A stretch of DNA of 64,000 nt from Nannocystaceae bacterium ST9 (GTDB lineage Bacteria > Myxococcota_A > Polyangia > Nannocystales > Nannocystaceae): positions 1,477,642 to 1,541,641 of the forward strand of contig JBLWFJ010000001.1 of assembly GCA_048320885.1 (NCBI GenBank), in the 5' to 3' direction. The translations under genes and the position numbers were made by a program. The notes under the pieces were generated by a model. It saw only the letters and a program-made list of their open reading frames with translations. It was not told where the DNA came from and searched no databases. Position 1 is the stretch's first letter. Every line of letters starts with the position of its first letter. Shown here piece after piece: positions 3,838 to 22,800 of the stretch.

Positions 3838-3962
3838 TCAAACTTGCGAGACCCTTGGGAAGCGCTTGCGAAGACGAGGCCCCGCGAGCCTGGATGGCCC
3901 CCGAGCGAAGAATGAATGAGCGAGCGAACGCGAAGCGAACAGACGCGAAGCGCTTGCGAGGA
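3838..3962 (-). repeat. GC-rich interspersed repeat (REP/MITE-like family), inverted orientation
   Basis: Its reverse complement matches the 'cctcctcgcaagcgcttcgcg..ttcgcttcgcgttcgctcgctcattc' core seen at 6330-6400 and 53270-53330. Confidence 0.7.
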
Positions 3963-3965
3963 GGG

Positions 3966-4023
3966 GAGCTGGCCACGCCCGCGCCCAGGCTGCCCTTCGA
4001 TCACGGCGAGTATCGCTTGGTCG
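3966..4023. repeat. 58-bp direct repeat, copy 2 (encodes ELATPAPRLPFDHGEYRLV, a duplicate of the radical SAM C-terminus)
   Basis: Near-identical to 2441..2498. Together the copies flank the HExxH gene plus a REP-like element. Confidence 0.8.
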
Positions 4024-4096
4024 GTGCGACGACGGGTCGCACGACGAACTGACGCAGGGGACACGACGCTCGGGCTCGCGTGTTAGTAGGGCCGCG

Positions 4097-5038
4097 ATGT
4101 CGCTCGTACGCTCGAAGGTCCTCTCGCTCACGATGCTCGCCCCGCTCCTGTCGGGCTGCCCCGCCGAGGAGCCGCCGATGGAGCCGTTCAGCCTGCGCTT
4201 TGCCGCCAGCGCCGACGGACAGGAGGTCGGCTGCGGCAGCGAGATCACCGGGCTCGGGCCGATGGGGCAGCATGTCGTGCGGCCCGCGGATCTGCGCTTC
4301 TACGTCAGCAACCTGCAGTTCTTCGACGCCGCGGGCGAGCCGATCGAGCTCGAGCTCGACCAAGACGAGTTTCAGTACCGCAGCGAGGCCGGCGAGGTCG
4401 CGCTGGTCGATCTGACCGGCACCGTCGATGGCGCCTGCTCGGCCTCGGCGATCGCCTTCGCCGAGGGCACCGCTCGCACCCACACCGCGATCACCGGCAA
4501 GACCCACGTCGATCACGTGGCGCGGATCAGCTTCGAGGTCGCCGTCCCGCAGCGGCTCATGCAGGAGACGATCGCCGCGAGCACGGCCGAGGCCGCCCCC
4601 TCGCCGCTCGCCGAGCTGTACTGGTCGTGGGCGACCGGCTACCGCCACTTCGTGTTCAACTTCGAGGTCGACGCCGGCGGAGAGCTCGGCGGCGGCTACC
4701 TGCACATCGGCAGCCGCGACTGCGGAGTCGAGGGCTCGCTCGCGCTCGAGGACCGCGACGAGTGCGGGTTCATCAACAACCCGGCGGTCGAGCTCGACGG
4801 CTTCGACCTGCGCGCGAACACGGTCATGCTCGACATCCCCGCCCTGCTCGCCTCGCTCGACTTCATCTCGCCGATCTACGACCCCGAGACCTTCGAGCCG
4901 ATCGGCGAGGGTCCCGGGGTCGAGTGCCACTCGTCCCCGATGCAGCCCGACTGCGAGACGATCTTCACCAACGTCGGCCTCGACATGGCGTCCGGCAGCG
5001 CCAGCGCGACCGCCAACGCCGTGTTCTTCGGAGGCTGA
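4097..5038 (+). CDS. MbnP-like / 'metallo-mystery pair' four-Cys motif periplasmic protein
   Basis: Signal peptide with lipobox (LLSGC) and conserved Cys pairs. Immediately upstream of, and almost abutting, a di-heme CCP-like gene (stop TGA 5036-5038, next start GTG 5040). Confidence 0.55.
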   Translation: MSLVRSKVLSLTMLAPLLSGCPAEEPPMEPFSLRFAASADGQEVGCGSEITGLGPMGQHVVRPADLRFYVSNLQFFDAAGEPIELELDQDEFQYRSEAGEVALVDLTGTVDGACSASAIAFAEGTARTHTAITGKTHVDHVARISFEVAVPQRLMQETIAASTAEAAPSPLAELYWSWATGYRHFVFNFEVDAGGELGGGYLHIGSRDCGVEGSLALEDRDECGFINNPAVELDGFDLRANTVMLDIPALLASLDFISPIYDPETFEPIGEGPGVECHSSPMQPDCETIFTNVGLDMASGSASATANAVFFGG

Positions 5039-5039
5039 C

Positions 5040-6200
5040 GTGGATCGGCTCGCGTCGCTCATCGCCCTGCTCTCCACGCTCGTGGCCTGCGAGTCGCCCG
5101 AACCGGACGACCCGAGCGAGGTCGACGACGCGGCCCTCCGCGAGCTGCTCGGCGTCCCCGACCACTTCGTGACGCCGGCGATCCCGGCCGGCAACCCGCC
5201 GACGGCCGAGAAGATCGAGCTCGGCCGCCGGCTCTTCCACGACCGCCGGCTCTCGGGCAACCAGACCCAGTCGTGCGCCGACTGTCACCTGCAGGAGCTG
5301 GCGTTCAGCGACGGCCTGACGACCCCGACCGGATCGACCGGCACGCTGCTCGAGCGCAACAGCCAAGGCCTCGCCAACGTCGCGTACCTGCCCTCGCTGA
5401 CCTGGGCGAGCGACGGGCTGCTCGAGCTCGAGCAGCAGATCCACGTGCCGCTGACCGCCGACGCGCCAATCGAGCTCGGCGTGACCGACGGCATCCGCGA
5501 CGAGGTGCTCGCGCGCTTCGAGGACGACCCGGAGTACGCGGCGATGTTCGCCGCCGCGTTCCCGGACCTCGCGGGCGAGATCACGCTCGATCACGTCGTG
5601 TTCGCGCTGGCCAGCTTCTGTCGCACCTTGATCAGCGGCGCGAGCCCCTACGATCGCTTCTTGGCCGGCGACGAAGCGGCGCTGACCGAAGAGCAGCGGC
5701 TCGGCATGAGCCTGTTCAACGGCGAGCGCTTCGAGTGCTTCCACTGCCATGGCGGCATCAACTTCACCGCCGCCTACCGCGACGCGCGGCACGATCCTGC
5801 GGACCCGCGCCTGGTGTTCTTCAACAACGGCCTCTACGACGTCGACGGCGAAGGCAGCTACCCGGCCCACGATCAGGGCCTCTACGAGCTGACCTTCGAC
5901 CCCGACCACCGCGGCCTCTTTCGCCCGCCGAGCCTGCGCAACGTCGCGCTCACCGCCCCCTACATGCACGACGGCAGCATCGCGACCCTGCGCGAGGTCG
6001 TCGAGCACTACGCCGCAGGCGGCCGACTCATCACCGAAGGCCCCAACGCCGGCGACGGTCGAGTCAGCCCGCTCAAGTCGGGCCTGGTGCGCAGCTTCGA
6101 AGCGAGCGACGAAGAGATCGACGCCGTCGTCGCCTTCCTCGAAGCGCTCACCGACGAGTCGTTCGTGACCAACCCCGCGCTCGCCGACCCCTTCGAGTGA
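5040..6200 (+). CDS. di-heme cytochrome c peroxidase-family enzyme (MbnH-like, MXAN_0977-type)
   Basis: Two CxxCH motifs (CADCH, CFHCHGG) with spacing typical of the CCP/MauG fold. N-terminal signal/lipobox. Confidence 0.8.
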   Translation: MDRLASLIALLSTLVACESPEPDDPSEVDDAALRELLGVPDHFVTPAIPAGNPPTAEKIELGRRLFHDRRLSGNQTQSCADCHLQELAFSDGLTTPTGSTGTLLERNSQGLANVAYLPSLTWASDGLLELEQQIHVPLTADAPIELGVTDGIRDEVLARFEDDPEYAAMFAAAFPDLAGEITLDHVVFALASFCRTLISGASPYDRFLAGDEAALTEEQRLGMSLFNGERFECFHCHGGINFTAAYRDARHDPADPRLVFFNNGLYDVDGEGSYPAHDQGLYELTFDPDHRGLFRPPSLRNVALTAPYMHDGSIATLREVVEHYAAGGRLITEGPNAGDGRVSPLKSGLVRSFEASDEEIDAVVAFLEALTDESFVTNPALADPFE

Positions 6201-6202
6201 GG

Positions 6203-6580
6203 GGGGTCTGGTTTGATGGAGGGCGTTCCGCCGCCCTCCCCCGTGCCGAGCAAGCTCGTCACGGGTCCCCCTCCTCTGGTTTTTCTGGAGGCCCTTCCGC
6301 GGGCCTCCCCCGTGCCGGCGGAGCCGTCACGGGTCCCCCTCCTCGCAAGCGCTTCGCGCCTGTTCGCTTCGCGTTCGCTCGCTCATTCCTTTGCTCGGAG
6401 GTGAGCCAGGCATCGCATTCGCTCGCTCATTGCTTTGCTCGGAGGTGAGCCAGGCATCGAGCCTGGTCGCTTCGCGCTCGCTCATTCCTTGCTCGGAGGT
6501 GAGCCAGGCTTCGGGCTTGGTCGCTTCGCGTTCGCTCGCTCGGCGCGATCGCGTTCGCTCGCTCAGTGGAAGATCTCGTG
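6203..6580. repeat. composite GC-rich repeat block: two tandem hairpin units (ggaggSc-ttcc-gScgccctcc ...gtcacgggtccccctcctc) plus a ~40-nt unit x3 (cgctcgctcattcctttgctcggaggtgagccaggcatc)
   Basis: Direct inspection of the sequence. Shares a core with the repeats at 3838-3962, 33640-33990 and 53218-53420. Confidence 0.8.
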
Positions 6581-7678
6581 GCCGAGGCGCTCGAGTTCGG
6601 CGAGGGTGTCGGGGGGATCGACGTGGCGTGGGGCGGTCCAGATTCGCAGGCCTGGGCGGCTGGTCGCGATCGCGTCGATCGAGCGGCGGGTGCGGTGGCC
6701 GAGCTCGTGGATGCCGGCGTAGGTGGTGCACAGGCGATCGACGACGGCCCGGGCGGCCTCGCTCTCGCCGAGCTGGGCGAACACGGCTCGCTCGATTCGC
6801 TCGCGCGCCGGTGGGTCGGGCAGCTCGGCGTCGGTCCGGTTGAGCAGCACGGCGTCGATCCGCAGGCCGTAGGCGGCGAGCTGGTCGAGGAACTCGCGGG
6901 CCTCGCGAGCGGAGAAGGGTGAGGCGGTGGTCACCAGCAGCACGCCGGTCGCGGGGCTGCGCAGCAGTCGTTCGAAGTCGCCGCCGCGACGGTGGAACTC
7001 GCCGAGCACCTCGGCGAACTCGCGCAGGAAGGCGCCGAGGTCCCCGATGAAGTCGCCGCCGCCGATCTGCCGGAGCGTCTTGCCGAGCACCGAGCCGCCG
7101 AGCCCGAGGATCTTGGCGCCGACCCGGCCGGTCCCGGCCAGCAGGCGCGCGCCGGGGTTGTCGATCAGCTCGCGGACCTGCTTGGGCGCGTCGAGGAAGT
7201 CGATCGCGTTGGCGGTCGGCGGGGTGTCGAGGACGATCAGGTCGTGCTCGCCGGCGTCGTGGAGCATCTGAACGCGGGCCATCGCGGCGAACTCGAGCGC
7301 ACCCGAGAGCCGCTGGGCGGTCGCGCGATAGATCCGACTGGCGAGGATCTTGTCGGCGCTGGCCGGGTTGCTCGCGCAGGTGCGGACGATCGTGTCGAAC
7401 ACCTTGGCGCCGTCGAGCACGAGCGCGTCGAGGTGGCCGCCCTCGCGCCGGACCGGGACCAGCTCGCCGGTTCGTCCGCGCGCGTCGAGTCCGAGCGCCT
7501 GGGCGAGTCGGCGCGAGGGATCGATGGTCACGACCGCGACCTTGCGACCCTGGCTCGCGGCGTAGAGCCCGAGCGCGGCGGCGCTGGTGGTCTTGCCGAC
7601 GCCACCGGGGCCCACGCACAAGACCAGCTCGCGGCCGGGGAAGGGCAGGGAGGATCCTGTGGACGGCCTAAGGGGCAT
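6563..7678 (-). CDS. ArsA/GET3-family anion-transporting ATPase (SIMIBI P-loop)
   Basis: Deviant Walker A GPGGVGKTT. Start placed at the internal Met (MPLRP). The longer ORF reaching 7714 would overlap the divergent biotinyl-protein gene. Confidence 0.7.
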   Translation of the reverse strand: MPLRPSTGSSLPFPGRELVLCVGPGGVGKTTSAAALGLYAASQGRKVAVVTIDPSRRLAQALGLDARGRTGELVPVRREGGHLDALVLDGAKVFDTIVRTCASNPASADKILASRIYRATAQRLSGALEFAAMARVQMLHDAGEHDLIVLDTPPTANAIDFLDAPKQVRELIDNPGARLLAGTGRVGAKILGLGGSVLGKTLRQIGGGDFIGDLGAFLREFAEVLGEFHRRGGDFERLLRSPATGVLLVTTASPFSAREAREFLDQLAAYGLRIDAVLLNRTDAELPDPPARERIERAVFAQLGESEAARAVVDRLCTTYAGIHELGHRTRRSIDAIATSRPGLRIWTAPRHVDPPDTLAELERLGHEIFH

Positions 7679-7697
7679 GCAATAACCTCCCGGCGCG

Positions 7698-8252
7698 ATG
7701 GCGGCCGAATCCAACCCCAGCGGCTATCGGATCCGCGTCGGCGAGCGCGAACATCGAGTCGAGATCCTCGCTGCGAGCGAGGGCCAGCCGCTGCGCGTGC
7801 GGGTCGACGGCCACGAGTTCGAGGTCGCGAACGCGGGCGTGCACGCGCTGCGCGTGGCCCCGCAGTCCGGCGAGGATCGTCGGCAGCTCGAGGTCACGCT
7901 CGCCAGCGATGGCGGCCGCGCGAGCGAGGCCTGGCTGTCCGGCACGCGGGCCAAGCTCGCGGTCCAGACCGAGCGCGAGGCTCGGCTCGCGGCCGCGCTC
8001 GGCAAGTCCTCGGCCGGTCACGGCAGCGGCGAGCTGCTCGCCCCGATGCCCGGCCGCGTGGTCAAGGTCGGCATCGCGCTCGGCGATCGCGTCGAGCGAG
8101 GCGCACCGATCATGATCGTCGAGGCCATGAAGATGGAGAACGAGCTGCAGGCCCCGATCAGCGGGATCGTGCGCAGCATCGCCGTGCAGGCCGGCGCCGC
8201 GGTCGATGCCAACCAGGTGCTCTGCGTGATCGAGCCCGAGCCGGCCGCTTGA
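7698..8252 (+). CDS. biotin/lipoyl attachment domain protein (BCCP-like)
   Basis: C-terminal biotinyl-domain consensus: IMIVEAMKMENELQAP...VLCVIEP. Confidence 0.65.
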   Translation: MAAESNPSGYRIRVGEREHRVEILAASEGQPLRVRVDGHEFEVANAGVHALRVAPQSGEDRRQLEVTLASDGGRASEAWLSGTRAKLAVQTEREARLAAALGKSSAGHGSGELLAPMPGRVVKVGIALGDRVERGAPIMIVEAMKMENELQAPISGIVRSIAVQAGAAVDANQVLCVIEPEPAA

Positions 8253-10240: not shown

Positions 10241-12361
10241 TCAGTTCCAGGTCGGCAAGAACGACTGCTCGCGGCCGTACTCGAGCATCTGCTCGGTGAA
10301 GTCGGCCGGGTAGTCGATCCGCACGTCGACGATCTCGTCGCCCTCCATGACCGGGACCAGCCGCGGCTGAAGGAACCCGGCGTAGGGCGCGATGCCCAGT
10401 CCGGCGTAGCGGCGCAGCACCTGCTCGTGCAGATCGCGATCGACCTTCACGCCGTAGGTCTCGATCAGCGCCTTGCCGGCCGCGGTGTCGCCCTGCGACT
10501 TGATCCGCTGGATCTCGCGCAGGAGCTGGCCGAAGAGCGCGCGCAGCTTGGCGTAGTCGCGGATCACGAAGAAGGTCTCGCCCTCGCGCTCGAGCTTCTC
10601 GATCACGTTGTCGGGCTTGCCTTGCTCGTAGGCCCAGAGCGCGACCAGCTGGCGGTTGCGCATGTGCGACTCTTCGAGCTGCTCGCCGAGTTCGAGCCGC
10701 GAGAGCTGGATCAGCAGGCCGTTGCGGACGTAGCTGTCGTACTCGGCCTTGCCGACCTCGAGCGAGGGCATCAGGCCGAGCTCGACCAGCTTGGGATCCA
10801 TCACGTAGTAGAGCGCGACCAGATCGGCGCGGGCCTCCTCGAGTGCGCTGGCGTGGGCGCCGAGCGTCTGTTTGGGCGTGCCGACGCCGGGCTCGAGCTG
10901 GCCCGAGGCGTGGCCGATGACCTCGTGCATGTCGACGTGCAGCTTGGCGGCGAGCGGCCCGAACTGCTCGGCCCGCTCGCGCTCCTCCGGCGAGGCGCAG
11001 AACTCCTCGAGCACGCCGCCGCCGGCCCGCCCGAAGTCGTAGGCCTCGACGATGTTGCCGAGGTTGACCGACTTGCTGCCGTGCTTGGTGCGGATCCAGT
11101 TGGCGTTGGGCAGGTTGATGCCGATCGGCGTGCTCGGGGCCGCGTCGCCGGCCTCGACGACCACGGTCACGACCTTGGCCGAGATCCCGACCACGTCGGG
11201 CTTCTTGTGGGCGTCGATCAGCGGCGCGTTGTCTTCGAACCACTGGGCCTGCCCGGCGATCGTCGCGATCCGCTTGGTCGCCTCGGCGTCCTGGAACGAG
11301 ACCACGCCCTCCCAGGTCCCGCGGTAGCCGATCGCGTCGTCGTAGACCTCGATGAACCCGTTGATCGTGTCGAAGCGCGACTGCGTGTCGGCGACCCAGG
11401 CGACGTTGTACTCGTCGAACTTGCGCAGGTCGCCGGTCTCGTAATAGGCGATCAGCAGCTCGAGCGCGCGCTTCTGTTCGGGGGTCTCGGCGATCGCGGC
11501 CGCCTTCGCCAGCCAGCCGATGATCTCGCGGATCGCCGGCCCGTACATGCCCTGCGCCGACCAGACCTGCTCGACCAGCTTGGCCTTCTTGCCCTTGCCC
11601 TCGCGGACGAGCTTCGAGTTCAGGCCCAGCGAGATCGGCTCGGGGTCGTTGGGGTCGAGCTGCTTGGCGTAGAACTTCTGGACCTCGGCGGCCGTGATCC
11701 CGGGCGCGTAGAAATTCGACGCCGAGTCGGCGACCGGGTCGGCCCCCTCGTCGCGGTTGGTCCGCTTGGCCGCGATCTTCGGGTCGAAGATCATCGGGCC
11801 GATCGTCGCGAGCAGGGCGTCGACGCTCTCGCCCTCGCGCAGCGGCAGCAGGGCCGGATCGAGGCTGCGCACGGCCTGCTCGAACCACGCCTGGGCGAAG
11901 CCGGGCTCGAGCTTCTTGCTCGAGTAGTGGTGGTGGATCCCGTTCGAGAACCACACCCGCTTGGCGTACTCGTGCAGGGCCATGAACTCGGGGCCGGCGC
12001 GCTCGCCCTGCCAGTGCTCGACCAGGGCGTCGAGCGTGCGACGGATCGCCAGGTTGCCGGCGTACTTCTGATCGTAAGTGATGTCGCGGCCGGCCAGCGC
12101 GGCCCGGTAGAGGTAGTAGGCCAGCCGCTTTTGCTCGATCGGCAGCTCGGCGAAGCCGGGCACGCGATAGCGGAGGACCTCGACGTCGGCGAAGCGATCG
12201 ACCGACCAGTCGAACTCGGGCTGCAGATCGACCGGCGGATCCTCGTCGGGCGTCTCGACGCGGGTGTCGGGCGGCTCGGTGTTCGGCTTGGTCTCGCAGG
12301 CGAGCGAGGTCGGGAGCGCGAGCGTGAGCAGGAGGGCGAACGAGAGACGCGAGGTCGACAC
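10241..12361 (-). CDS. M49-family (dipeptidyl-peptidase III-like) zinc peptidase, lipoprotein
   Basis: HEVIGH ... EEARADL (HExxGH + EExxAE) zinc-binding pair. Lipobox LPTSLAC. Confidence 0.7.
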   Translation of the reverse strand: MSTSRLSFALLLTLALPTSLACETKPNTEPPDTRVETPDEDPPVDLQPEFDWSVDRFADVEVLRYRVPGFAELPIEQKRLAYYLYRAALAGRDITYDQKYAGNLAIRRTLDALVEHWQGERAGPEFMALHEYAKRVWFSNGIHHHYSSKKLEPGFAQAWFEQAVRSLDPALLPLREGESVDALLATIGPMIFDPKIAAKRTNRDEGADPVADSASNFYAPGITAAEVQKFYAKQLDPNDPEPISLGLNSKLVREGKGKKAKLVEQVWSAQGMYGPAIREIIGWLAKAAAIAETPEQKRALELLIAYYETGDLRKFDEYNVAWVADTQSRFDTINGFIEVYDDAIGYRGTWEGVVSFQDAEATKRIATIAGQAQWFEDNAPLIDAHKKPDVVGISAKVVTVVVEAGDAAPSTPIGINLPNANWIRTKHGSKSVNLGNIVEAYDFGRAGGGVLEEFCASPEERERAEQFGPLAAKLHVDMHEVIGHASGQLEPGVGTPKQTLGAHASALEEARADLVALYYVMDPKLVELGLMPSLEVGKAEYDSYVRNGLLIQLSRLELGEQLEESHMRNRQLVALWAYEQGKPDNVIEKLEREGETFFVIRDYAKLRALFGQLLREIQRIKSQGDTAAGKALIETYGVKVDRDLHEQVLRRYAGLGIAPYAGFLQPRLVPVMEGDEIVDVRIDYPADFTEQMLEYGREQSFLPTWN

Positions 12362-12434
12362 GCGCGAGGCGTGCCACCCGACCCCGCGCGAGTCAAGCCA
12401 CTCGATTCAGGCCACCCGCTTCAGGCCACCCGCT

Positions 12435-13556
12435 TCAGGCCCCGAGAGTCGAGCCCTGCGCGTCGGGCATGCGCAGGTCCTCGAACTGCGCGTAGACGAA
12501 TCCGAACTCGCGGCGAATCGCCTCGTCGGAGAGCCCGAACGCGGCCGCCGAGTAGCGGTGCTGCGAGGCGTAGTCGCCCTGCTTGCCGGCCTGCTCGCGC
12601 AGCAGCAGCTCGGTGGCCGCGTCGAGCTCGATGTCGAGGAAGCGAGCGACGCGGGTCATCGTGCCCTCGAAGTCGCTGAACAGGCTCGGATAGGTGAGGA
12701 TCAGCGTGTCGGACTCGGCCCGGCGAGCCTCGACGCAGAGCCGGCGATAGTAGACCGCCGAAGTCCGGACCAGGTTGTCGAAGTAGCGCTTGCGCAGCGA
12801 CTCGCTCTGCGCGTCGATGTCGTTGATCCGGCGCTGGATCCCGTGCTCGAGCGAGCACATCGACACGACCGACTCGACCGGATCGCGGACGATCAGCAGG
12901 AACTTCGCGCCGGGGAACTGCGCGCGGACCTGGTCCATGTTGAAGAGCAGGCAGAACGACTTGCTGAACATCCGCAGGCCGCTGCGGTGGACCGCCCGGC
13001 GATAGACCGCGGCCAGGTAGCGGACGAAGCGGGGCTTCTCGACGGTCTCGGCCAGCGCCCGCTCGAACGCCGCGTCGTCGGGGTACTCGCGCCAGGCGTG
13101 GAAGTAGATCCACGAGAGCAGCCCGTCGAAGTAGCGCATCGAGAGCGCGATGTCGTCGGTCTCGGCCGCGAAGAACCCGGTCTCGTGGATGTTGGGATCG
13201 TAGACGCGATCGAAGGACACCCGCTGCATGAAGCGCAGGAAGGGCCGCAGCAGCAGCCGAGCCGTCAACGCCGGAAACACCATCTCCCACAGCAGCAGCG
13301 AGCGAAACGGGAAGGTCTCGGTCAGCCAGCGGTGCAGGAAGGTCGTGCCGCTGCGCAGGTGGCCGATCAAAAACACCGGGCGATCGAGCGGCGTCCGGAC
13401 CCCGCGAGGAAAGAACAGGTGATCGAGCGCGAGCGTGAGCGCGGTGAACGAGGTCAACGCGATCCGAAACCCGAGCAGGCCGAGCTGGCGCCAGCGAAAC
13501 CCGAACACCTCGATCAGCAGCAGGACGACGCGGAAGCTGTTGATCAGCCCGGTCAT
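12435..13556 (-). CDS. membrane-anchored sulfotransferase (PAPS-dependent family)
   Basis: 5'-PSB-like LIGHLRSGTTFL and 3'-PB-like RDPVESVVS motifs. N-terminal hydrophobic helices. Start ATG overlaps the stop of the upstream type III PKS (ATGA). Confidence 0.7.
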   Translation of the reverse strand: MTGLINSFRVVLLLIEVFGFRWRQLGLLGFRIALTSFTALTLALDHLFFPRGVRTPLDRPVFLIGHLRSGTTFLHRWLTETFPFRSLLLWEMVFPALTARLLLRPFLRFMQRVSFDRVYDPNIHETGFFAAETDDIALSMRYFDGLLSWIYFHAWREYPDDAAFERALAETVEKPRFVRYLAAVYRRAVHRSGLRMFSKSFCLLFNMDQVRAQFPGAKFLLIVRDPVESVVSMCSLEHGIQRRINDIDAQSESLRKRYFDNLVRTSAVYYRRLCVEARRAESDTLILTYPSLFSDFEGTMTRVARFLDIELDAATELLLREQAGKQGDYASQHRYSAAAFGLSDEAIRREFGFVYAQFEDLRMPDAQGSTLGA

Positions 13557-14629
13557 TGCGCTTCCCACTCGTAGAGCGCGGCGCCCATGTAGTAGCCGGC
13601 CCCGAACGAGACGATCATGCCCTTGCGCCCGTGCTTGCCGGACGGGTCCTCGGCGAAGAAGCTGTCGAGCACGAACAGGCAGCTCGGCGCGCTGAAGTTG
13701 CCGTGGCGCCGGAAGAGTCGGGTCGCGCGATCGAGCTGGGCGCTCGACAGCCCGAGCAGCTCGGGCTTGCGGAACTCGGCGAGGATCGGCAGCCCGCCTT
13801 GGTGCATCGCCCACTCGTCGATCTCGCCGACCTCGAGCCCATGCCGGGCGAGCATCGGTCGGATCAGCCGCTCGCTGACCATGCGCGGGACCTCGTGCCT
13901 GAGCTCGTCGGTGAACACCAGCCGGCCCGCGTCCATCCACACCGACGCGCCCGGCACGAAGTCGCAGGCGACGTCGAGCAGGCGCATCAGCGGGCGTCGA
14001 AAGGCCCGCCGCAGCGAGCGAGGCGCGAGCAGCAGGCCGGCCGCGCCGTCCGAGAAGAGCAGGCTGGTCCGCAGGTGCTCGCGAAAGTCGACCTGCGCGG
14101 GATCGCGGACCGGATCGACGATCCACGAGCACTGATCGAACACGCAGAGCGCGGCCAGTCGCTCGCGCTCTCGACAGTAGCGAAACCCGCTCTCGAGCGA
14201 GAAGAGCCCGCCGGCGCAGCCGTAGAACGCCCGCTCTTCGGGCGGCACGTCGAGCGCCAGCGGGACCGCGCTGGCGACCTGGGCCGCGAGGCTCGGCAGC
14301 AGGTCGGCGCTCGACGAGACGTTGTAGGCCACGCCGAGGAAGCCGATGTCGCGCGCGACCGGGCTCGAGGTCGACAGCTCCTCGACCATCCCGCGGCACC
14401 ACTCGAGCGGTCGATACTCCGGGCGCGCCAGGGTTCGATTCGGGAACGCGTCGGGGTCGAGCACCGACGAGCGCGACTCGATGCCGACGACCTGGGCCGC
14501 GCGTCGGGCCAGTCGATTGATCCGGCCCTGCGCGAGCGAGGGCGGATAGAGCACGTCCATGCACTCCTCGGGGCTGAACAGCCGCGGGAGCCGGGTGGTG
14601 ATCCCGGCGATGTAGACTGCGTCCGACAT
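13553..14629 (-). CDS. type III polyketide synthase (chalcone/stilbene synthase family)
   Basis: Catalytic triad contexts match CHS: GCAGG (Cys), WAMHQGGLPIL (His), GNFSAPSCLFVLD (Asn). Confidence 0.8.
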   Translation of the reverse strand: MSDAVYIAGITTRLPRLFSPEECMDVLYPPSLAQGRINRLARRAAQVVGIESRSSVLDPDAFPNRTLARPEYRPLEWCRGMVEELSTSSPVARDIGFLGVAYNVSSSADLLPSLAAQVASAVPLALDVPPEERAFYGCAGGLFSLESGFRYCRERERLAALCVFDQCSWIVDPVRDPAQVDFREHLRTSLLFSDGAAGLLLAPRSLRRAFRRPLMRLLDVACDFVPGASVWMDAGRLVFTDELRHEVPRMVSERLIRPMLARHGLEVGEIDEWAMHQGGLPILAEFRKPELLGLSSAQLDRATRLFRRHGNFSAPSCLFVLDSFFAEDPSGKHGRKGMIVSFGAGYYMGAALYEWEAQ

Positions 14630-14779
14630 GCGCCTGCTCGGGTCGGCGATTGGAGCATGAACCCGAGAGCGGGTGCCAGCACGCGTGCGCGCGCGGACAG
14701 GCCAGTCCTCACGCCCTGCGCGATTCGATTTGTCGACGGAAGCGCGACGAGCCCAATCGCGCTTCCATCGAGTTCGCGG

Positions 14780-15877
14780 CTACATCGCCAACGGCACGCA
14801 GGTCGAGACGCCCGCGCCGACGATCCGGATCGGCGCCTGCGCGACCACGGTCGAGAGCGCCTTGGTGTCGTCGTAGTCGTAGTGCGTGACCTTCGAGAAG
14901 GTCGGGTTGTTGCCCTCGGTGAACAGGTAGAAGTCGCCGCCGTAGAACCCGAACGCGAACGCGTTGGTCAGGTTCATGTTGAGCTGCTCGACCGCGATCA
15001 CCTGCGCGTTGGACTTGTCGTACTCGACCAGCTTGGCCGGCGCGCCGGCGAACGCGAAGAGCCGGCCGTCGCCCGTGCCGGTCAGCTCGCCGCCGTTGTA
15101 GTCGATGAAGTCGATCTCGGTCATCGTCAGGGTCTCCGGGTCGAGCCGCCCGAGCCGCCCGGTGTTCGGGCCCTCGGTGAACCCGCCCTGGCCGTTCCAG
15201 CTGTGCGCGTAGAGCTTGTCGCAGGGATCGAACTGATCGTTGGACACGAAGCCCATGCCGAACTTGTTGAACCCGAGCTGACCCGGCTGGTACATCGGGT
15301 CGAGGCACATGTTCGGGTTGTTGACGTCGATCGTGTAGATGTCGTCGTTCTGGAACATCACGTGGGCGATGCCGTTGCGATCGACCGACATCGAGAACGC
15401 CTGATTCTGCGGGCAGCCGAGGTTCGCGGCGATCATCGCGAACTGGTTGTTGACCGGGTCGTAGCTCCACAGCTCGCCGTCGTCGGACAGCACGTAGATC
15501 AGGTCGGTGTTCTCGGCGCAGTCGCAGATCGGCATGCCGGTGTCGGTGCCCGAGTCGGTGCCCGTGCCCGAGTCCGTGCCCGAGTCCGTCGACGAGTCCG
15601 TCGACGAGTCCGTGCCCGAGTCCGTCGACGACGAGTCCGTGCCCGAGTCCGTCGACGACGAATCCGTGCCCGAGTCCGTGAGCGAATCCGTACCGGCGTC
15701 CGTGCCAGAATCCGACGAGCCGCTCTCGCTCGCCGACGAGCTCGACTCTTCGGCGGTCGAGCCCGAGTCGCTGTCGGTGTCGCCGACGTCGTCGTCGGGC
15801 TCGCTCGGCTCGTTGCCGCAGCCGAGCAGAGAGAAGGTCGTAGTCAAGGAGAGTGGAACGAGCCAACCGAGTCGCAT
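14780..15877 (-). CDS. secreted lipoprotein with Ser/Thr/Asp-rich linker, unknown function
   Basis: Signal peptide with lipobox LLGC, (SGTDS)n low-complexity linker, then a Cys-containing globular domain. The long alternative-frame ORF 14709..17543 was rejected. Confidence 0.5.
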   Translation of the reverse strand: MRLGWLVPLSLTTTFSLLGCGNEPSEPDDDVGDTDSDSGSTAEESSSSASESGSSDSGTDAGTDSLTDSGTDSSSTDSGTDSSSTDSGTDSSTDSSTDSGTDSGTGTDSGTDTGMPICDCAENTDLIYVLSDDGELWSYDPVNNQFAMIAANLGCPQNQAFSMSVDRNGIAHVMFQNDDIYTIDVNNPNMCLDPMYQPGQLGFNKFGMGFVSNDQFDPCDKLYAHSWNGQGGFTEGPNTGRLGRLDPETLTMTEIDFIDYNGGELTGTGDGRLFAFAGAPAKLVEYDKSNAQVIAVEQLNMNLTNAFAFGFYGGDFYLFTEGNNPTFSKVTHYDYDDTKALSTVVAQAPIRIVGAGVSTCVPLAM

Positions 15878-15982
15878 GCCGCACCCTATCACGAGCACGA
15901 TGCGGGGTGGCCGTGTCGTCGAGAGCGGCGCGACGAGCGACGAGCTCGCTGACGAGGCGAGCTCGCGATGTCGCAGTGCCAA

Positions 15983-16903
15983 TCAGCTGGGCCGGCGCTC
16001 GGTCAACGCTCGGATCAGCCAGCGCCCCGCGGGCCCGGGCGGCGCAGCGGCGCGATGCAGCAAGAGCATCTCGACCAGATAGGGTTCGCTGCCCCACTCG
16101 CTCACGACGATCCGCGCGAGCCGACCGGACGCGAGCTCGTCCTCGATCATGTGCGCCGGCATGTTGCCCCAGCCGAAGCCCGCGAGCAGGCAGGCCTGCT
16201 TGGCCGGCAGATCGGCGAGCCGCCAGTTGTTGTCGCCGGCGACCGACATGTCGAGACCGGCCGTCAGCGGCGAGCGATCGGTGAGCACCAGCTGGGTGTG
16301 GCTGCGGACCTCGGCGAGCCCGAGCGGCCCGGTCGTGCGCGCGAGCGGGTGGTTGGTCGCGCAGACCGTGACCAGCTGGATCGGCCACAGCGGCGTGCGC
16401 TCGAGCCCCGGCGGGAACTCGGGCAGCGGCTCGCTGATCCCGAAGTGGACCACGCCCTCGGCGACCAGCTGCGCGACGGCCCCGAGCGCCTCGGTCCGCA
16501 GATGCAGCGGCACGGTCGGATACTCGCGGCGAAACGCCGCGAGCACGTCGAGCAGGATCGCCATCGGGAAGAAGGGATCGACCGCGATCGCCAGGCGCGG
16601 CTCGACCCCCTCGCGCAGCTGACGAGCGCGCGCGAGCAGACGATCGACGCGGGCGTCGACCATGCGGGCGTCGTCGAGCAGCGCGCGGCCGGCCTCGGTC
16701 AGCACCGGCTTGCGACCGTTGCGATCGAAGAGCTCGAGCTCGAGCAGGCGCTCGAGGTTGGCGATCGCGTAGCTGATCGCCGACTGAGCCCGGGCGAGTC
16801 GCTTGGCCGCGCCCGAGAAGCTGCCGGTCTCGACGATGGCCAGAAACACCGAGAGCTGGTCGAGGGTGATGGGCTCGCTGGTCACGGTCGCCATGTTCGG
16901 CAT
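15983..16903 (-). CDS. LysR-family transcriptional regulator
   Basis: N-terminal wHTH (LDQLSVFLAIVETGSFSGAAKRLARAQSAISYAIANLE) plus a LysR substrate-binding domain. Confidence 0.85.
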   Translation of the reverse strand: MPNMATVTSEPITLDQLSVFLAIVETGSFSGAAKRLARAQSAISYAIANLERLLELELFDRNGRKPVLTEAGRALLDDARMVDARVDRLLARARQLREGVEPRLAIAVDPFFPMAILLDVLAAFRREYPTVPLHLRTEALGAVAQLVAEGVVHFGISEPLPEFPPGLERTPLWPIQLVTVCATNHPLARTTGPLGLAEVRSHTQLVLTDRSPLTAGLDMSVAGDNNWRLADLPAKQACLLAGFGWGNMPAHMIEDELASGRLARIVVSEWGSEPYLVEMLLLHRAAAPPGPAGRWLIRALTERRPS

Positions 16904-18610
16904 TCAGGGGATGAAGATCGTCTCGGCCAACATGCCGCCCGGGTAGGCGTAGCCCGCCGAATAACTGGCGTTGGTGAAGGTCGAGTAGCCGTACTGGATG
17001 ATCCCGAACGAGACGTCGCCGTGGATCTCGTGCGCGCCTTCGACGATCGGCACGGTCGCGATCTCCCACGCGCCGACGCTGGTCCAGGTCGTGACCGTCG
17101 CGCCGTCGAGCACGATCGTCGCCGCGCCGGCCGGTCGAATGACCTGCACGTAGTGGCGATCGTAGGAGAAGCCGGTCACGAACACGTAGCGATCGAGGAA
17201 CTGCTCGATCGGGACCATCTGGACCATCGCCGGCGAGCCGACGTCGCCGGCCGCGTAGTGGCCCGCCGTGTACTGGACCGGCATGAAGGGCCCGTCGCCG
17301 TCGAACACCAGATCGGTGCCGGTCGGGACCTCGAGATCGAAGTAGTCGCCGCGGTTGGCCAGCACGAAGGGCGAGCCCGGCTGCGGAGGCTCGACGTCGA
17401 TCGTCACGTCGTCGGCGCCCGAGTAGACCCGCCAGTAGTGATTCTCGGTGTCGCGGACCGGCGAGGCCGGCCCGACGTAGAGCTGCCCCCAGGTCTCGAG
17501 CGGGAGGTTCTGCTCTTGCACGAAGTCGGATCCGCCTTGGCACTCGGCGAGGATCGGCGCGGGCGGGGCACAGCCGGGGATGGCCTGGTCGGTCGCGCAG
17601 TAGGGCACCCGCAAGCCACGGACCGCCGACATCACCCAGATCGGCTTGTCGGCGCTGACGACCGTGCCCGAGAGGTCCTGCTCGCAGGGCGGTCGATCGA
17701 GCTTCTGCGAGGTGTCGATGCGGACGTTGTCGAAGCGGTTGAGCAGCTGCTCGCCGATCTGCCCGCCCTCGACGTAGGGCAGCGGCAGCGAGTCGCCGGC
17801 GGTCTCGACCGACGGCGTCCAGCGCAGCGTGGTCTGATCTTCCATGGCGATGACGATGAAGTAGCTGGGCGTGACGTAGGCCGGATAGCCGTAGACGACG
17901 TAGTCGTTGCGCAGGACGTGCTCGGGCAGGAGCAGCGAGGAGCCGTTGGTGGAGGAGCCCTCGTAGGGCGAGTGCAGGTAGGCGACGATCGGGAGGTCGC
18001 TGACGACGTGCTGGACGGCGCCGGATCGGTACTGCGAGGTCTGCTCGGCGTACTCGGTCAACTCCGGGTCGAGCAGGAACACGTGGGTCTCGCCGGGGGC
18101 GAGCATGATTGGCCCTTCGGCCAGTTGCTCTTGGTTGGTTCCCTCCGGCACAAAACGCAACTCCACGGTTGCCAATGACTCCGGGTCGGGGTTTCCGACC
18201 ACGAGCGCGTCCGGCGGCAGCTCGGACAGTTGCGGGGCCGCCTGGTACATGCTGGTGGCGTAGAAGGAGCAGCCCTGCGAGGACGGCTGGTCGATGAGCT
18301 GCTCACAGGGGCCGACGCAGCTGGCGACGCAGTCGCCGTCCTGCTCGAGAAAGCAGGGCTGACACTCCTGATAGGTGTCGCACGTCCGGGAGTCCCATCC
18401 GAGCCCCGTGGCGGTGCAAGTCTCGAGGGTCTCGGAGTCCGCGCACCGAAGCTCACCGGGTTGGCAGACGAGTTGCGGGCCGTCGTCGGCGGCGGTCTCG
18501 GTGGATGTCGCGCCGGAGAAGTCGGTGGCCGCGACTTCGTCGTCGACTGGCGGGGAAGAGGGTTGGCAGGCGGAGAGGAGGAAGAGGAGCGCGCAGGCAC
18601 TCAAGCGCAT
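16904..18610 (-). CDS. Cys-rich secreted lipoprotein, unknown function
   Basis: Lipobox LLSAC. N-terminal myxobacterial-type Cys-rich repeats, followed by a large beta-rich domain. Confidence 0.5.
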   Translation of the reverse strand: MRLSACALLFLLSACQPSSPPVDDEVAATDFSGATSTETAADDGPQLVCQPGELRCADSETLETCTATGLGWDSRTCDTYQECQPCFLEQDGDCVASCVGPCEQLIDQPSSQGCSFYATSMYQAAPQLSELPPDALVVGNPDPESLATVELRFVPEGTNQEQLAEGPIMLAPGETHVFLLDPELTEYAEQTSQYRSGAVQHVVSDLPIVAYLHSPYEGSSTNGSSLLLPEHVLRNDYVVYGYPAYVTPSYFIVIAMEDQTTLRWTPSVETAGDSLPLPYVEGGQIGEQLLNRFDNVRIDTSQKLDRPPCEQDLSGTVVSADKPIWVMSAVRGLRVPYCATDQAIPGCAPPAPILAECQGGSDFVQEQNLPLETWGQLYVGPASPVRDTENHYWRVYSGADDVTIDVEPPQPGSPFVLANRGDYFDLEVPTGTDLVFDGDGPFMPVQYTAGHYAAGDVGSPAMVQMVPIEQFLDRYVFVTGFSYDRHYVQVIRPAGAATIVLDGATVTTWTSVGAWEIATVPIVEGAHEIHGDVSFGIIQYGYSTFTNASYSAGYAYPGGMLAETIFIP

Positions 18611-18858
18611 CCTCCAATCCTACAGAAATTTTGAACCGAGAGTCCGGCTATCTTTTGGGTTGCGAGGGTGGGCGACCGAGGGTACCACCCGTGAAGCGAA
18701 CTGCTTTTACCGTGGTCTGCATGACGTCACCTGACACGGCAATCGACGATTCCCATCGAACTCGAGCCGAATCGTAATCTTCTGAACCAATCATGATATT
18801 ATACTCGCGACGAAGCCGCGATCGATCCTTTGTCGATCGCCAGCTGCCCGCGAGGAAT

Positions 18859-19731
18859 TCAAGGAGCCAACGAAGGACAACCCAAACGCACGCTCATCCA
18901 GTACGTCCCCGCGGGGAACATCACATTACGCTCTCCCGCACAAAAAGCTCGCAAGGCTTCGGCATAGCAATTTCGCCATTCACGATACGCAAGAATCGCC
19001 AAGGTTCGAACATGGGCACACGTCGACGCAAACCTGGGTCGAACATGCAATGCCTGGCGCTCCCGCGGCGGCGCGTCGTTCCAGTGCTGCGCGAAGACCT
19101 TTCGCATGCCGATCACGGGCGTCTCGATGGCGACGTCCTCGGCCTCGCGCACTCGATCAGCAACCGCTCGCTGGAGCATTTCATCGTCGAGAGAGGCGTA
19201 GATTTCCGGCCGAGTCAACACGAGCGTGGCCCGAGCTGGCATGGACTCGCTGAAGAAGACACGGGGTCGTTCGATCACTCGGCGTGTTCCGTACGCCATG
19301 CCCATCGACGTCGAGCCCTCCCAATGCCGGGCCCGGGATACCAGTCGAGCGGCGACCGGGTTGGCGTGAACGTAGGCGAGACGCTGAAAGATGGAATCTT
19401 CGTCCAACAACTCGACCCCATTGAATGGCTCTGGATCCCAGAAGCTGCCGCTCCGCCCGAGCAATTCGTTCATGGCGCGTGCGACCATGGCGTTGAGATA
19501 TTGTGCGAAGTCCGAGATCTTGCCGAGCGGATCGGTGACGACCAGGTGGTAGTGGTTGCTCATCACGACGAACGCGTGGAGCTTCAACCCGAACGACGCA
19601 CACGCGAGAGCGAGTACATATTCGAAGATCTGTCGGACCGCAGGGTCGGGTCGGAGAAAGAACCGCTGCTCCGAGCATCGACGGGTCACGAGATAAGTCG
19701 GACCGGGGAGAACTCGCCGTGGTTGGGTCAC
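18859..19731 (-). mobile_element. IS200-like / HuH (Y1) transposase-family protein (possible REP-associated tyrosine transposase)
   Basis: SNHYHLVV HuH-like motif and a downstream conserved Tyr region. The gene lies in a lower-GC patch (18650-19800) flanked by AT-rich DNA. Confidence 0.55.
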
Positions 19732-19865
19732 GTGGAGTCATCGGCCGCTCCTCGTCGTCATTGCAGATATTTTACCATATCGAAACAGTGTCATCCAGCA
19801 CACGACCAGCCGCCGCCCCAATCCAGGACTCTCGGTCCGGAGAGGGCTGCGGTACCGTCTCCGAG

Positions 19866-22800
19866 GTGTCCGCTCCGGACCGCGTCCTGCAAGTGCTCCC
19901 CACGCGCGAGCGGGTCGCCGAGCTCCTCCGCGCCCGCGTCCGCCAGCGAGGTGCCGCCCTCGCCCTCGGCCTCATCGACCTGCGCAGCCTCGAAGACCGG
20001 CTCCTGCGCGCCAGCGGCATGCAAGTCGTCGGCGCCACCGAGGCTCGGCTCGCGCTCGGAGCCGTCGCCCCCGAAGCCGCCCGCTCCACCACCCTCGCCG
20101 AGCTCGCCACCCAGCCCGGCTTCGCCGACGCCTTCCTCGAACTCTGGGACGCCCTGCGCCGCGCGGGCATCGAGCGCGACGACTTCGTGCGCCTCGCCGA
20201 GCGGCTCGCCCGAACCAACCCCCGCTCGAGCCCCGGACCGAGCCTCTCGGCCCGCCGCTTCGAAGCGCTCGCCAAGATCGCCGCCGCCTACGAAGACCGC
20301 CTCGCCGCTCGCCAAGTCGTCGACGGAGCGGGCGCTCGCCTGCGCCTCCCGGCCGCGCTGGCCGAGCTGAGCCCGAGCCGGATCCGCGCCCTGCTCGACG
20401 GCGCGAGCGTGGTCGAGTTCGACGGGATCGGCGAGGTCTCGGTCGTCCGCGCCCGCATGCTGCAGGCGCTCGCGCGCGCGGACGTCCGCGTGCGCGTGCT
20501 GGTCCCCGAGGTCCCGCCCAACCTCGCGGCCGCCGAGCTCGGCGTGGCGCTCGAGCTCTCGCGCCGCAACCTGATCGACGAGGCCCCCGACGTCGAGTTG
20601 ATCGCCCGCCCGCTCGCCCGCGCGGGGCTGCTGGCCTTCGTCGCGCCCGGCTCGGCCCGCAGCCTGATCGATCCGCGGATGGCCCAGCGCATCCGCCTGC
20701 TCGACGCCGAAGATCTGCGCGCCGAGCTGCGCGGCGTGTGTGCGGCGATTCGCGATCTCCTGCACGCCGGCGTCGCCCCCCACCGGATCACGCTTGCGAT
20801 CCCTCGCCTGCCCTGGCACCGCACCCGCGTGATCGCGGCGCTCGACTCGGCCGAGATCGCCTGGGACGAGGCCCGCCCGCGCACGCTCGTCCAGCACGCG
20901 GCCCCGCTCCGGCTCGCGCTCGCGCTGATCGAGGCGGCCGAGCGCGGGCTCCCGCGCGAGGAGCTGGCCGCGGTGCTCGAGTCGGCCTACGTGATCAAGC
21001 GCGGCTCCTCGCTGCTGATCCAGGCCCTGCGCGAGGCCGGCTCGCGCGACGATCGAGGCCCGGGCCACCTCGCCCGCCTCCGCCAGCACGCCGAGCGGCT
21101 CGCTCGCGGATCGCCGCGCGAGCAAGACCGTGCGACCAAGCTGCTCGCGCTCGCCGACGACTGGCAGCGCCCCTTCGAACGCCTGAAGCTGCGCGACCAA
21201 GCGACGCTCGCCGATCACCTCGACGATCTGTTCGCGGCCCTGCGCACGCTCGGGGTCCCGCGTCGCTGCCTCAACCTGCCGGGCGTCGGCATGGGGGCTC
21301 GCGAGCGTCGCTTCGAACGTGACGCCGTGCTGGCGCTGGCCCGCGATCGCCAGGCCCTCGAGGCGCTCGAAGTCGCGGGCCACGGGCTGGTCGAGGCCGC
21401 GAAGGCGGTCGGGATCGCCGAGCGAGCGATCGGCCTGACCGAGTTTCGCGGCCACCTCGAGGCCGCGCTCGCGGGGCTGGCCGGACCGCCGCCGAGCGTG
21501 CGGGGCTCCGGCGTGGCGCTGCGCGACCTCGCCGAGTTCGCCGGCTCGACCACCGATCACCTCTTCGTGCTGCACGCGGTCGAGGGCGAGCTGCCCGGGC
21601 CCGGCCGCGCGCTGCCCTTCCTCGACGAAGACGATCGGCTCGCGCTCGATCGCGCCGCCGGCCGGCCCGTGCTCGCCCCGCCCGGCGCCGCCGATGCGGC
21701 CGCGTTCGCGCTCGCCTGCGCAGGCGCGCGCGAGGGCCTGGTGATCAGCTGCCATCGGCAAGACGGCGAAGGTCGCGAGCTGCTGCGCTCGCGCTGGTTC
21801 GTCGCGCTCGCCGACGCGCTGCGATCGACTCGCGAGCTGCCGGCCAGCGTGGTCGCCCCGCTCGCGCTCGCCAGCACGCGCGGCCAGGTGCTCGCGCGGC
21901 TCGGTCTGCAGGCCGCCCAGGAGGCCGAGCTCGACGGCCCCGCGCTCGCGCTGCTCGAGCTCGGCGTGCACACTCGGCCCGAGCTCGCGCGCGCGCTGGC
22001 CTGGATCCGTGCGCGCGCGTCCGATCCTCAGCGCGCGCGCGTCCGACTCGATCCGAGCACGCTGGCGCTGGCCCACCGCCTGCTCGACTTCGACGCGAGC
22101 GGCCAGCGAGCGGCGACGCCCGAGCAGGCCGGGCTGGTCTGGCGCGGCTCCGCGACCGCGCTCGAGCACTACGCGAGCTGCCCCTTTCGCCTGTTCGCCG
22201 ACCGCGTGCTGCGAGTCCGTCCGCGGCCCTCGATCCGCGACGAGCTCGACGCCCGCGAGCAGGGCCAGGTCCGCCACCAAGTCCTCTTCGAAGTCATGCA
22301 GGCGCTGCGCGAAGCCGGGCTCACGCCCTTGCGCGGCGGCGATCAGACCTGGCGAGAGAACGAGCTCGCGCTCGAGGTCTGCGAGGGCGTGCTCGATCGC
22401 TGGCAGGCCCGCGAGCGGACCGGACCGCGCGCGCTGTGGATCCTCCACCGCGATCTGGTCGTCCGCGATCTCCTGCGTCTGCTCGAGGGTGAGCGACGGG
22501 CGGCGATCGAGGCCTGGGAGCCCGAGCAATTCGAGCGCGGCTTCGGCCTGCCCGATCCCGCCGACGCCACCCGGATCGAGGGCGAGCCGCTGGCGATCCC
22601 CAGCCGCGAGGGTCAGCGCCGCTTCGAACTGGTCGGTCGGGTCGATCGGATCGACGCGCGCGGCGAGGGCCGCGAGCGCGAGGGCCTGGTCATCGACTAC
22701 AAATCCGGCCGAGTCGGCGAGCGTCTGCGCTACGACCAGCTCGCGCGCACCCAGCTGCAGCTGCCGCTCTACGCCGCGTGGCTGGCCGCCGTCCGTCCCG

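Follow-up and report, generated by a model that had tools for sequence, protein, structure and literature searches.

A type III polyketide synthase-like gene and an overlapping predicted sulfotransferase gene in a myxobacterium

What might be made by two genes that share four nucleotides, the first for a polyketide synthase (PKS)-like condensing enzyme and the second for a predicted sulfotransferase (ST)? The pair is on the minus strand of a 64-kb stretch of DNA, here called the window, from Nannocystaceae bacterium ST9, a marine-type myxobacterium. The answer that we consider likely is that PKS and ST form a two-step module giving a sulfated polyketide of the pyrone or resorcinol type. The ST is of the kind that uses 3′-phosphoadenosine-5′-phosphosulfate (PAPS); the features of the pair, in window coordinates, are these:

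13553..14629, minus strand: PKS coding sequence, 358 aa, type III PKS-like condensing enzyme with Cys138, His276 and Asn311; open reading frame (ORF), MFV8750146.1
12435..13556, minus strand: ST coding sequence, 373 aa, predicted Stf-type PAPS-dependent sulfotransferase, from Pfam and PDB matches; MFV8750145.1
13553..13556, minus strand: ATGA stop/start overlap of the PKS and ST genes, read from the DNA; operon
14630..14779, minus strand: intergenic region of 150 bp 5′ of the PKS gene, a gap between ORFs and the sole candidate promoter region of the pair

The gene pair and its recurrence

A sequence-only reading of this DNA had the ST gene starting on the PKS stop codon, and both the DNA and the NCBI gene models confirm it. 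The overlap is 4 nt of ATG/TGA because the minus-strand junction reads GCGCAATGACCGGG, with the ST start ATG at 13556-13554 and the PKS stop TGA at 13555-13553, and the two ORFs are exactly gene models that NCBI has for ST9. There MFV8750146.1 bears the name '3-oxoacyl-ACP synthase III C-terminal domain-containing protein', and MFV8750145.1 that of 'sulfotransferase'; the window ST is 100% identical to protein P0076, 'sulfotransferase [Nannocystaceae bacterium ST9]'. Translational coupling of the two genes is likely. A 4-nt overlap is by itself common in operons. Is the pairing more than chance? It is taken to be so because 16 further loci, from several phyla, have the two genes in this order. 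An ST homologue is directly 3′ of the PKS gene in 10 of the 48 genome loci that encode a PKS family member, and further contigs with the pair (L050/L051, L052, L053, L054, L056 and L058) bring the total, with the window, to 17 loci, which belong to Myxococcota, Poribacteria, Bacteroidales and unclassified metagenome-assembled genomes (MAGs). The junction is an overlap of 1-14 nt in 10 of the 17 (the window, L001, L003, L042, L050, L052, L053, L054, L056 and L058) and in the others a gap, at most about 55 nt long. A rough neighbour-joining tree of the PKSs, with a single 3-oxoacyl-ACP synthase III (KAS III) outgroup, has most ST-linked loci in one large clade, with L050 and L009 elsewhere. In most loci of Aquificota, Campylobacterota and Flavobacteria the PKS occurs without an ST. 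Functional coupling of PKS and ST is supported.

Which genes accompany the pair? In 7 of the 17 loci those for PAPS synthesis, namely adenosine-5′-phosphosulfate (APS) kinase, here also CysC, with CysD and CysN, continue from it. An arylsulfate sulfotransferase (ASST) is with it in four (L037, L050, L053 and L054), and an AMP-ligase in two. The arrangements in relatives, some of them lacking part of the set, are:

L001 and L056: PKS-ST-TauE-CysC-CysD-CysN
L042 and L058: PiT/PHO4-PKS-ST-CysC-CysD-CysN, followed in L058 by FGE-sulfatase-domain genes
L054: PKS-ST-CysC-CysD-CysN/APSK, with an ASST 7.6 kb downstream
L002 and L003: the cassette in partial or split form
L050/L051 (Bacteroidales): ASST-PKS-ST, all three overlapping
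L037 (Myxococcales): ASST-AMP ligase-PKS-ST
L053: PKS-ST embedded in a cluster of AMP ligase, UbiA, FAD monooxygenase, a protein without assignment and ASST
L060: a cluster of the L053 type, without PKS-ST
L005, L006 and L008: PKS flanked by ASST-domain proteins secreted by the type IX secretion system (T9SS)

Because PKS-ST recurs with CysC-CysD-CysN, with permeases and with ASST, there is good support for a module that makes a sulfated polyketide in a PAPS-dependent way. On gene order, CysC-CysD-CysN standing 3′ of the ST gene in L001, L042, L054, L056 and L058, PAPS as the predicted donor has indirect support. The issue of PAPS supply, raised with the first reading of the DNA, has a divided answer: the cassette is 3′ of PKS-ST in relatives, and tblastn, phmmer and HMM searches of the 64-kb window found no CysC, CysD, CysN, TauE, PiT, AMP-ligase, UbiA or ASST. 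The bare PKS-ST arrangement is also that of L052.

The two enzymes

Is the first enzyme a type III PKS rather than a FabH-type one, as had been claimed from its catalytic contexts? The motifs then quoted (GCAGG, WAMHQGGLPIL and HGNFSAPSCLFVLD) are all present, as FYGCAGG with Cys138, WAMHQGGLPIL with His276 and HGNFSAPSCLFVLD with Asn311, and in an alignment of 22 family members the three residues are invariant, as are the motifs FDQCS, LLFSDGA and FGAG. In HMMER alignments they line up with the Cys-His-Asn triad of PKS18, which we take to be Cys175, His313 and Asn346. When the single sequence was searched against the PDB the top 60 matches were all type III PKSs or 3-ketoacyl-CoA synthases (KCS), with PKS18 of Mycobacterium tuberculosis first and CylI next, and a profile of the 22 members again had only type III PKS/KCS in its top 60, in the same ranking and with stronger scores: 89 bits for PKS18, and 75-80 bits for CylI, 2-pyrone synthase and Ectocarpus PKS1. 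With the family profile, canonical bacterial type III PKSs score 55-85 bits versus 31.8 bits for Escherichia coli FabH, and on these scores a FabH-type identity was rejected; the neighbour-joining tree, whose KAS III outgroup is a single sequence, does not by itself decide between type III PKS and KAS III. The best NCBIfam match is DpgA, a type III PKS, which scores 51.5 bits where the cut-off is 425, with the FabH models of that collection at 20-37 bits, below DpgA, and all of these are far under their cut-offs. The AlphaFold2 model (pLDDT 93.1) has a thiolase-like fold that Foldseek matches best to PKS18, Ectocarpus PKS1, PKS11, a Mycobacterium marinum type III PKS and CylI, with TM scores of 0.76-0.80. 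By profile and predicted fold the enzyme is closest to the long-chain alkylpyrone/alkylresorcinol synthases PKS18, PKS11 and CylI.

Its triad, fold and relative similarity support membership of the type III PKS superfamily. Not all of the original claim stood. The closeness to type III PKSs in profile and PDB comparisons did, while the context of the histidine, HQGG, is a hybrid between the HQAN of FabH and the HPGG of chalcone synthase (CHS), and in Pfam it is ACP_syn_III_C that scores higher (38.2 bits, with the C-terminal half only detected) and a CHS N-domain that is wanting. The curated type III PKS models of Pfam and NCBIfam are not passed, and the enzyme is best described as one of a divergent sister family of type III PKSs.

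How large is that family? When 5.8 billion proteins were searched by word index, 66 relatives scored 270-771 bits, after which there is a drop to <=56 bits, the level of ordinary alkylresorcinol/alkylpyrone synthases. HMMER, run exhaustively over 1.84 billion representatives of 50%-identity clusters, gave 3110 matches at E<=1e-3 and 43 at E<=1e-30, of which about 23 are full-length at 269-530 bits; beyond these there is one intermediate at 179 bits and all others are at <=125 bits. By such sequence scores the family is small and sharply separated. It reaches at least 8 phylum-level lineages, with hosts among Myxococcota, Poribacteria, Aquificota (Persephonella), Campylobacterota (Sulfuricurvum), Flavobacteriaceae, Bacteroidales, Cyanobacteria, large sulfur bacteria, Polaromonas and Planctomycetota. 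One protein, P0161, has a predicted 4818 aa in which 12 stretches match the family profile for 459.7 bits in total, and may be a tandem type III PKS-like array or a merged gene model.

That the second ORF is a PAPS-type, Stf-like sulfotransferase is supported by matches to Sulfotransfer_3 (PF13469, 71.6 bits, cut-off 27) and Sulfotransfer_1 (PF00685, 37.2 bits, cut-off 22), and the PAPS-binding motifs that had been claimed for it are there: a 5′-phosphosulfate loop GHLRSGTTFLHRW (the GHLRSGTTF region) at residues 65-75, and a 3′-phosphate motif LIVRDPVESVVS (the RDPVESVVS region) at residues 224-232. Across 24 homologues there is no variation at R68, G70, T71, T72, F73, H75, H124, R224, P226, S232 and H333. 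By sequence, the only solved relatives are the mycobacterial STF9 (2z6v) and STF1 (2zq5), with both of which the PAPS motifs align, and the AlphaFold2 model (pLDDT 90.0) matches the same two in Foldseek, STF1 with a query TM of 0.70 over 371 columns and STF9 with 0.71. For other sulfotransferases TM is about 0.3-0.38, the next after STF1/STF9 being tyrosylprotein sulfotransferases at ~0.3.

Among the distant fold matches are the ST domains of CurM and OLS, retinol dehydratase and LGS1, and these raise the issue of whether the sulfate is there to be lost. As a leaving group, as with those enzymes, it could activate the product for elimination, decarboxylation or cyclisation, with a final product free of sulfate, and stoichiometric use of sulfate would be in keeping with the PAPS genes dedicated to the pair in relatives. 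Those matches are weak, however (TM about 0.35 versus 0.70 for STF1/STF9), a thioesterase or another partner domain is lacking, and the ASST neighbours argue for a sulfate ester that persists and can be transferred. We regard activation of this sort as very improbable, and the least probable of the explanations weighed here.

The ST had also been described as membrane-anchored. Its N-terminus is predicted with confidence to form helices 2-18 and 22-48, i.e., a hydrophobic hairpin of residues 2-48, and the segment is hydrophobic family-wide. The best 19-residue Kyte-Doolittle mean is only 1.65, with 1.2-2.5 in homologues, and the segment bears conserved Arg residues and an invariant Asp45. As the predicted structure aligns near end-to-end with crystallised STF1/STF9, the helices are perhaps part of the fold; the model suggests that they may belong to the Stf fold. 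From the sequence, membrane anchoring is possible.

How would the two enzymes act in succession? The mechanism, apart from what family assignment, motifs, fold and synteny show, is one that we infer. From family and fold, the PKS would be a homodimer in which an acyl starter is loaded on Cys138 and extended with malonyl-CoA by means of the Cys-His-Asn triad, and it would release a cyclised product that bears hydroxyl groups, a pyrone or else a phenol of resorcinol/phloroglucinol type. In ST9 the starter would come from general acyl-CoA/ACP (acyl carrier protein) pools; some relatives have an adjacent AMP-ligase. From its motifs and fold, and from the neighbours in relatives, the ST would then move sulfate from PAPS onto a hydroxyl of that product to give an aryl or enol sulfate ester, with the N-terminal hairpin perhaps holding the enzyme at the membrane or serving as a lipid-binding lid. 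PAPS in ST9 would have to derive from cys genes outside the window. The sulfated polyketide would be the end product, as sulfated adipostatins are, or be passed on to an ASST. An alkylresorcinol or alkylpyrone as the product, and a part for it as membrane or developmental lipid, are conjectures of the sequence-only reading, and the recurrent ASST neighbours point to another possible role, that of sulfuryl carrier.

What weighs against a sulfated polyketide as joint product of the pair? The window holds a two-gene core that has neither PAPS genes nor AMP-ligase nor exporter, and an ST homologue also occurs without the PKS, in L049. No characterised member of the PKS family or of the ST subfamily was found. 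The PKS is 16-22% identical to solved type III PKSs, falls just short of the Chal_sti_synt_C (PF02797) cut-off, with 26.3 against 27 bits, and has no Pfam match to Chal_sti_synt_N (PF00195). FabH is in its Foldseek list at ranks 29-30 with TM 0.68-0.70, and because it follows there the fold alone discriminates weakly. Then there is Rv1373, the ST encoded next to pks18 in M. tuberculosis, which is reported to be active in vitro on glycolipids, not on a PKS product (PMC13141999).

Could the two enzymes have separate substrates, the first being a KAS III-type initiator or acyltransferase of lipid synthesis and the second sulfating an unrelated lipid of glycolipid or menaquinone type, with co-transcription merely reflecting a shared role in envelope lipids? 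Besides the reported glycolipid activity of Rv1373, the best Pfam match of the PKS, its KAS III-derived NCBI name, the JGI label of dihydromenaquinone-9 sulfotransferase on some ST homologues and the single occurrence elsewhere of each of the two families are all in keeping with this. Against it, the profile favours type III PKSs, at 55-89 bits, over FabH at 31.8 bits, the tight and often overlapping PKS-ST junction is kept across phyla, and the methyltransferase, halogenase-like and ASST neighbours of family members are typical of phenolic polyketides. We consider separate substrates highly unlikely.

The methyltransferase and halogenase-like neighbours are from other branches of the PKS family. 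In cyanobacterial (Xenococcaceae) loci L030, L036 and L040 a 220-aa S-adenosylmethionine (SAM) methyltransferase-like protein is encoded directly beside the PKS, and in L041 and L043 (Planctomycetota and a Xenococcaceae MAG) the adjoining gene is for a FAD halogenase/monooxygenase-like protein of 554 aa. Methyltransferases and FAD halogenase-like enzymes are typical phenol tailoring enzymes. Taken together, the neighbourhoods point to a PKS family product that is the substrate of phenol-tailoring enzymes, with one lineage tied to sulfate uptake, activation and transfer. Elsewhere the PKS gene is alone: in Sulfuricurvum (L022, L023, L029 and L034) it is near genes that by sequence inspection are gltX- and mqnA-like, in Aquificota including Persephonella (L014, L017, L019, L026 and L028) its neighbours are by inspection leucyl aminopeptidase- and superoxide reductase-like, and no tailoring enzyme adjoins it in those loci.

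Known systems and the fate of the product

Sulfated bacterial polyketides are to our knowledge rare, and the three type III PKS-ST pairings known to us are all actinobacterial. A dedicated ST partner had been called much less common than an O-methyltransferase, and in this the sequence-only reading overstated the case, there being precedents in adp (PMC12135136), in cpz/tot and in rv1371-pks18-rv1373 (PMC13141999). In the adp operon of Streptomyces davaonensis the order is adpPKS-adpST-APS kinase-CysD-CysN (the last three being adpP1/P2/P3) and the products are mono- and di-sulfated alkylresorcinols, the sulfated adipostatins or 'sulfatostatins', with AdpST being PAPS-dependent in vitro (PMC12135136). 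The likeness to the window is of a type III PKS gene followed in one operon by a gene for a PAPS-dependent ST, with the same logic of O-sulfation of a phenolic polyketide, and in the CysCDN-bearing relatives gene order is shared with this characterised operon: in L001, L042, L054, L056 and L058 there is the same run into APS kinase, CysD and CysN. In contrast, the window is without the PAPS cassette and its PKS is in a separate, deeply diverged family. Compared by description, AdpST is reported to fall among actinomycete/lanthipeptide STs (PMC12135136) whereas the window ST is Stf-like, and adp is not described with the TauE/PiT permeases or the ASSTs that the window's relatives have. No Streptomyces protein appeared among the named PKS and ST homologues.

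The cpz/tot clusters are a further PKS-ST precedent (Tang et al. 2013, PMID 23912167, as recounted in PMC12135136, PMC4924298 and PMC12297285). Sulfation of caprazamycin is, on such secondary accounts of Tang et al. 2013 (PMC4924298, PMC12135136), in two steps that involve the type III PKS Cpz6, the PAPS-dependent ST Cpz8 and the ASST Cpz4. The trio of type III PKS, PAPS ST and ASST is matched in relatives L037, L050, L053 and L054. It is not matched in the window, where there is no ASST, and the module of window and relatives is outside antibiotic clusters; Cpz6 itself is a germicidin/tetrahydroxynaphthalene synthase (THNS)-like actinomycete type III PKS, 53% identical to VioA, and outside the window PKS family. 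In M. tuberculosis the operon is rv1371-rv1372(pks18)-rv1373, with the gene for the Rv1373 ST 5 nt after pks18 and the product unknown (PMC13141999). There also a PKS gene is followed by an ST gene, and PKS18 is the best solved relative of the window PKS as STF1/STF9 are of the ST. However, PKS identity is only ~19-20%, there is a 5-nt gap instead of an overlap, and an Rv1371-type desaturase was not seen in the flanks of the window pair, where the neighbours are a protein that Pfam does not match and an M49 peptidase. More distantly, ArsB/C, SrsA-SrsB and the Myxococcus xanthus alkylpyrone cluster share with the window the combination of a stand-alone type III PKS with one enzyme that tailors the phenol head group, the partner in the window being a sulfotransferase instead of a methyltransferase. 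The adjacent AMP-ligase of some relatives resembles the myxobacterial Ftp system. The myxobacterial alkylpyrone cluster is reported not to be conserved in Nannocystis and other Polyangiia, and the word 'sulfotransferase' is absent from the text of that paper. The logic of PKS-ST is already known, and what differs here is the enzyme families, the phylum, the missing PAPS cassette, and the permeases and exported ASSTs of relatives.

The caprazamycin precedent bears on what becomes of the product. There, presulficidins carry sulfate from PAPS to caprazamycin (PMC4924298). Could the sulfated polyketide of the window likewise be an aryl-sulfate carrier, in a sulfuryl relay of Cpz6/Cpz8/Cpz4 type that takes sulfate from PAPS to a PAPS-independent ASST, which then sulfates the real target? 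Its first two steps would be those of the module set out above and the difference would be solely in the fate of the product. The operons or clusters of L050/L051, L037, L053 and L054, which have an ASST with PKS-ST, are in line with a relay, as is the flanking of the PKS by T9SS-secreted ASST-domain proteins in L005, L006 and L008. ST9 itself encodes two ASSTs outside the window, P0313, which shares 68% identity with the PKS-linked ASST of L053 and carries a lipoprotein-like signal sequence, and P0370, at 47%.

A close relative, L059, adds to this. Its LysR regulator and IgGFc-binding-domain protein are 90% and 85% identical to those of the block next to PKS-ST in the window, nucleotide identity over 16009-18431 is 86%, and about 7 kb past its IgGFc gene there is an ASST that is 73% identical to P0313. 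Synteny between window and L059 stops at ~18.45-18.6 kb, just past the IgGFc-binding gene, and in that region (18450-20400) GC falls at the synteny end to 0.628, versus about 0.70 elsewhere, and an ORF for an IS200-like Y1 transposase (PF01797, 24.7 bits) is present at 18859-19731 on the minus strand. As the end of synteny, the GC drop and the transposase ORF coincide, a rearrangement is possible and may have moved a region with an ASST away from that with PKS-ST.

Other evidence is contrary to a relay. The 64-kb window is without an ASST, and most of the PKS-ST-CysCDN cassettes (L001, L003, L042, L056 and L058) have none within 8-10 kb. Operons with ASST and without PKS-ST exist, as in L060, and because Nannocystaceae hold several ASST paralogues an ASST elsewhere in the ST9 genome is weak evidence. 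A relay is possible, without being what we expect. In a more general form the proposal is that the PKS family and the Stf-type ST are a widespread non-actinomycete system for a diffusible aryl-sulfate carrier that takes sulfate from PAPS to exported ASSTs, be they lipoproteins or T9SS-secreted, and this we put forward as a tentative and rather doubtful idea. The physiological substrates of bacterial ASSTs are stated to be unknown (PMC13426309). If the general proposal is true, the carrier would be the physiological sulfuryl donor that has long been sought for these enzymes, with the ST9 pair feeding ASSTs such as P0313.

The PKS family has repeatedly recruited genes for sulfate uptake and PAPS synthesis, an Stf-type ST and ASSTs. 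Characterisation of the ST9 pair would assign a function to the whole PKS family, possibly inform by analogy on the product of M. tuberculosis pks18-rv1373, and allow a test of sulfated polyketides as natural ASST donors.

Surroundings of the pair and minor observations

The flanks of the pair have a gene for a lipoprotein at 14780-15982, without a Pfam match, and those for the LysR regulator, the IgGFc-binding-domain protein and the M49 peptidase. The latter three were rejected as pathway parts, since only in close relatives do they stay with the pair, and the 400-aa lipoprotein, considered as a divergent ASST-like beta-propeller or other pathway member, was rejected as it has no Pfam match. 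No homologue of it was found beside the PKS in 51 loci; its N-terminus matches the truncated first gene of L059. The lipoprotein-like gene is on the minus strand, has a long linker rich in Ser, Asp, Thr and Gly, and is conserved in L059 with the LysR and IgGFc-binding protein genes. Its true start is probably at MRLGWLVPLSLTTTFSLLGC, near 15877. Scans for sigma-70-type promoters gave no match in 14630..14779, and with intrinsic terminators included none in 12200-16100, both being uninformative at the 68-70% GC of a myxobacterium.

At the other end of the pair, a tandem repeat with a 14-bp unit, which reads TGAAGCGGGTGGCC on the minus strand, is at window 12393-12441 in 3.5 copies with 91% matches, and occupies most of the 73-bp gap between the ST and M49 peptidase genes. 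Each copy begins with TGA because the repeat starts at the ST stop codon. Other convincing copies of it were sought in the window and none was found.

Several neighbourhoods in relatives have features of their own. A myxobacterial cluster, at 3134-9929 of L053 and 1668-9067 of L060, encodes an AMP-ligase, a UbiA prenyltransferase, a FAD monooxygenase, a 636-aa protein without a Pfam match and an ASST, and may make a prenylated aromatic that gives or receives sulfate. The ASST-domain proteins that flank the PKS are at 2-2131 of L005, where the contig end truncates the protein, at 2619-5186, 5285-7837 and 9339-11825 of L006, making three copies there, and at 179-1027 of L008. They are of 709 to ~850 aa and have, besides Ig-like domains, a C-terminal sorting domain of T9SS, and no Stf-type ST is nearby in these three loci. 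Two genes 5′ of PKS-ST in L009 (1906-2910) is that for a DHH/DHHA1 protein, of a family that includes NrnA-type phosphatases of 3′-phosphoadenosine-5′-phosphate (pAp), and after PKS-ST-CysCDN in L058 are two for FGE-sulfatase-domain proteins (15189-16337 and 19092-20051); both are hints of a sulfur-transfer theme. Finally, beyond the end of synteny with L059, the minus strand of the window at 19791-25702 has two ORFs, of 1097 and 873 aa, without a Pfam match and with 73-76% GC, that face competing long ORFs on the opposite strand.

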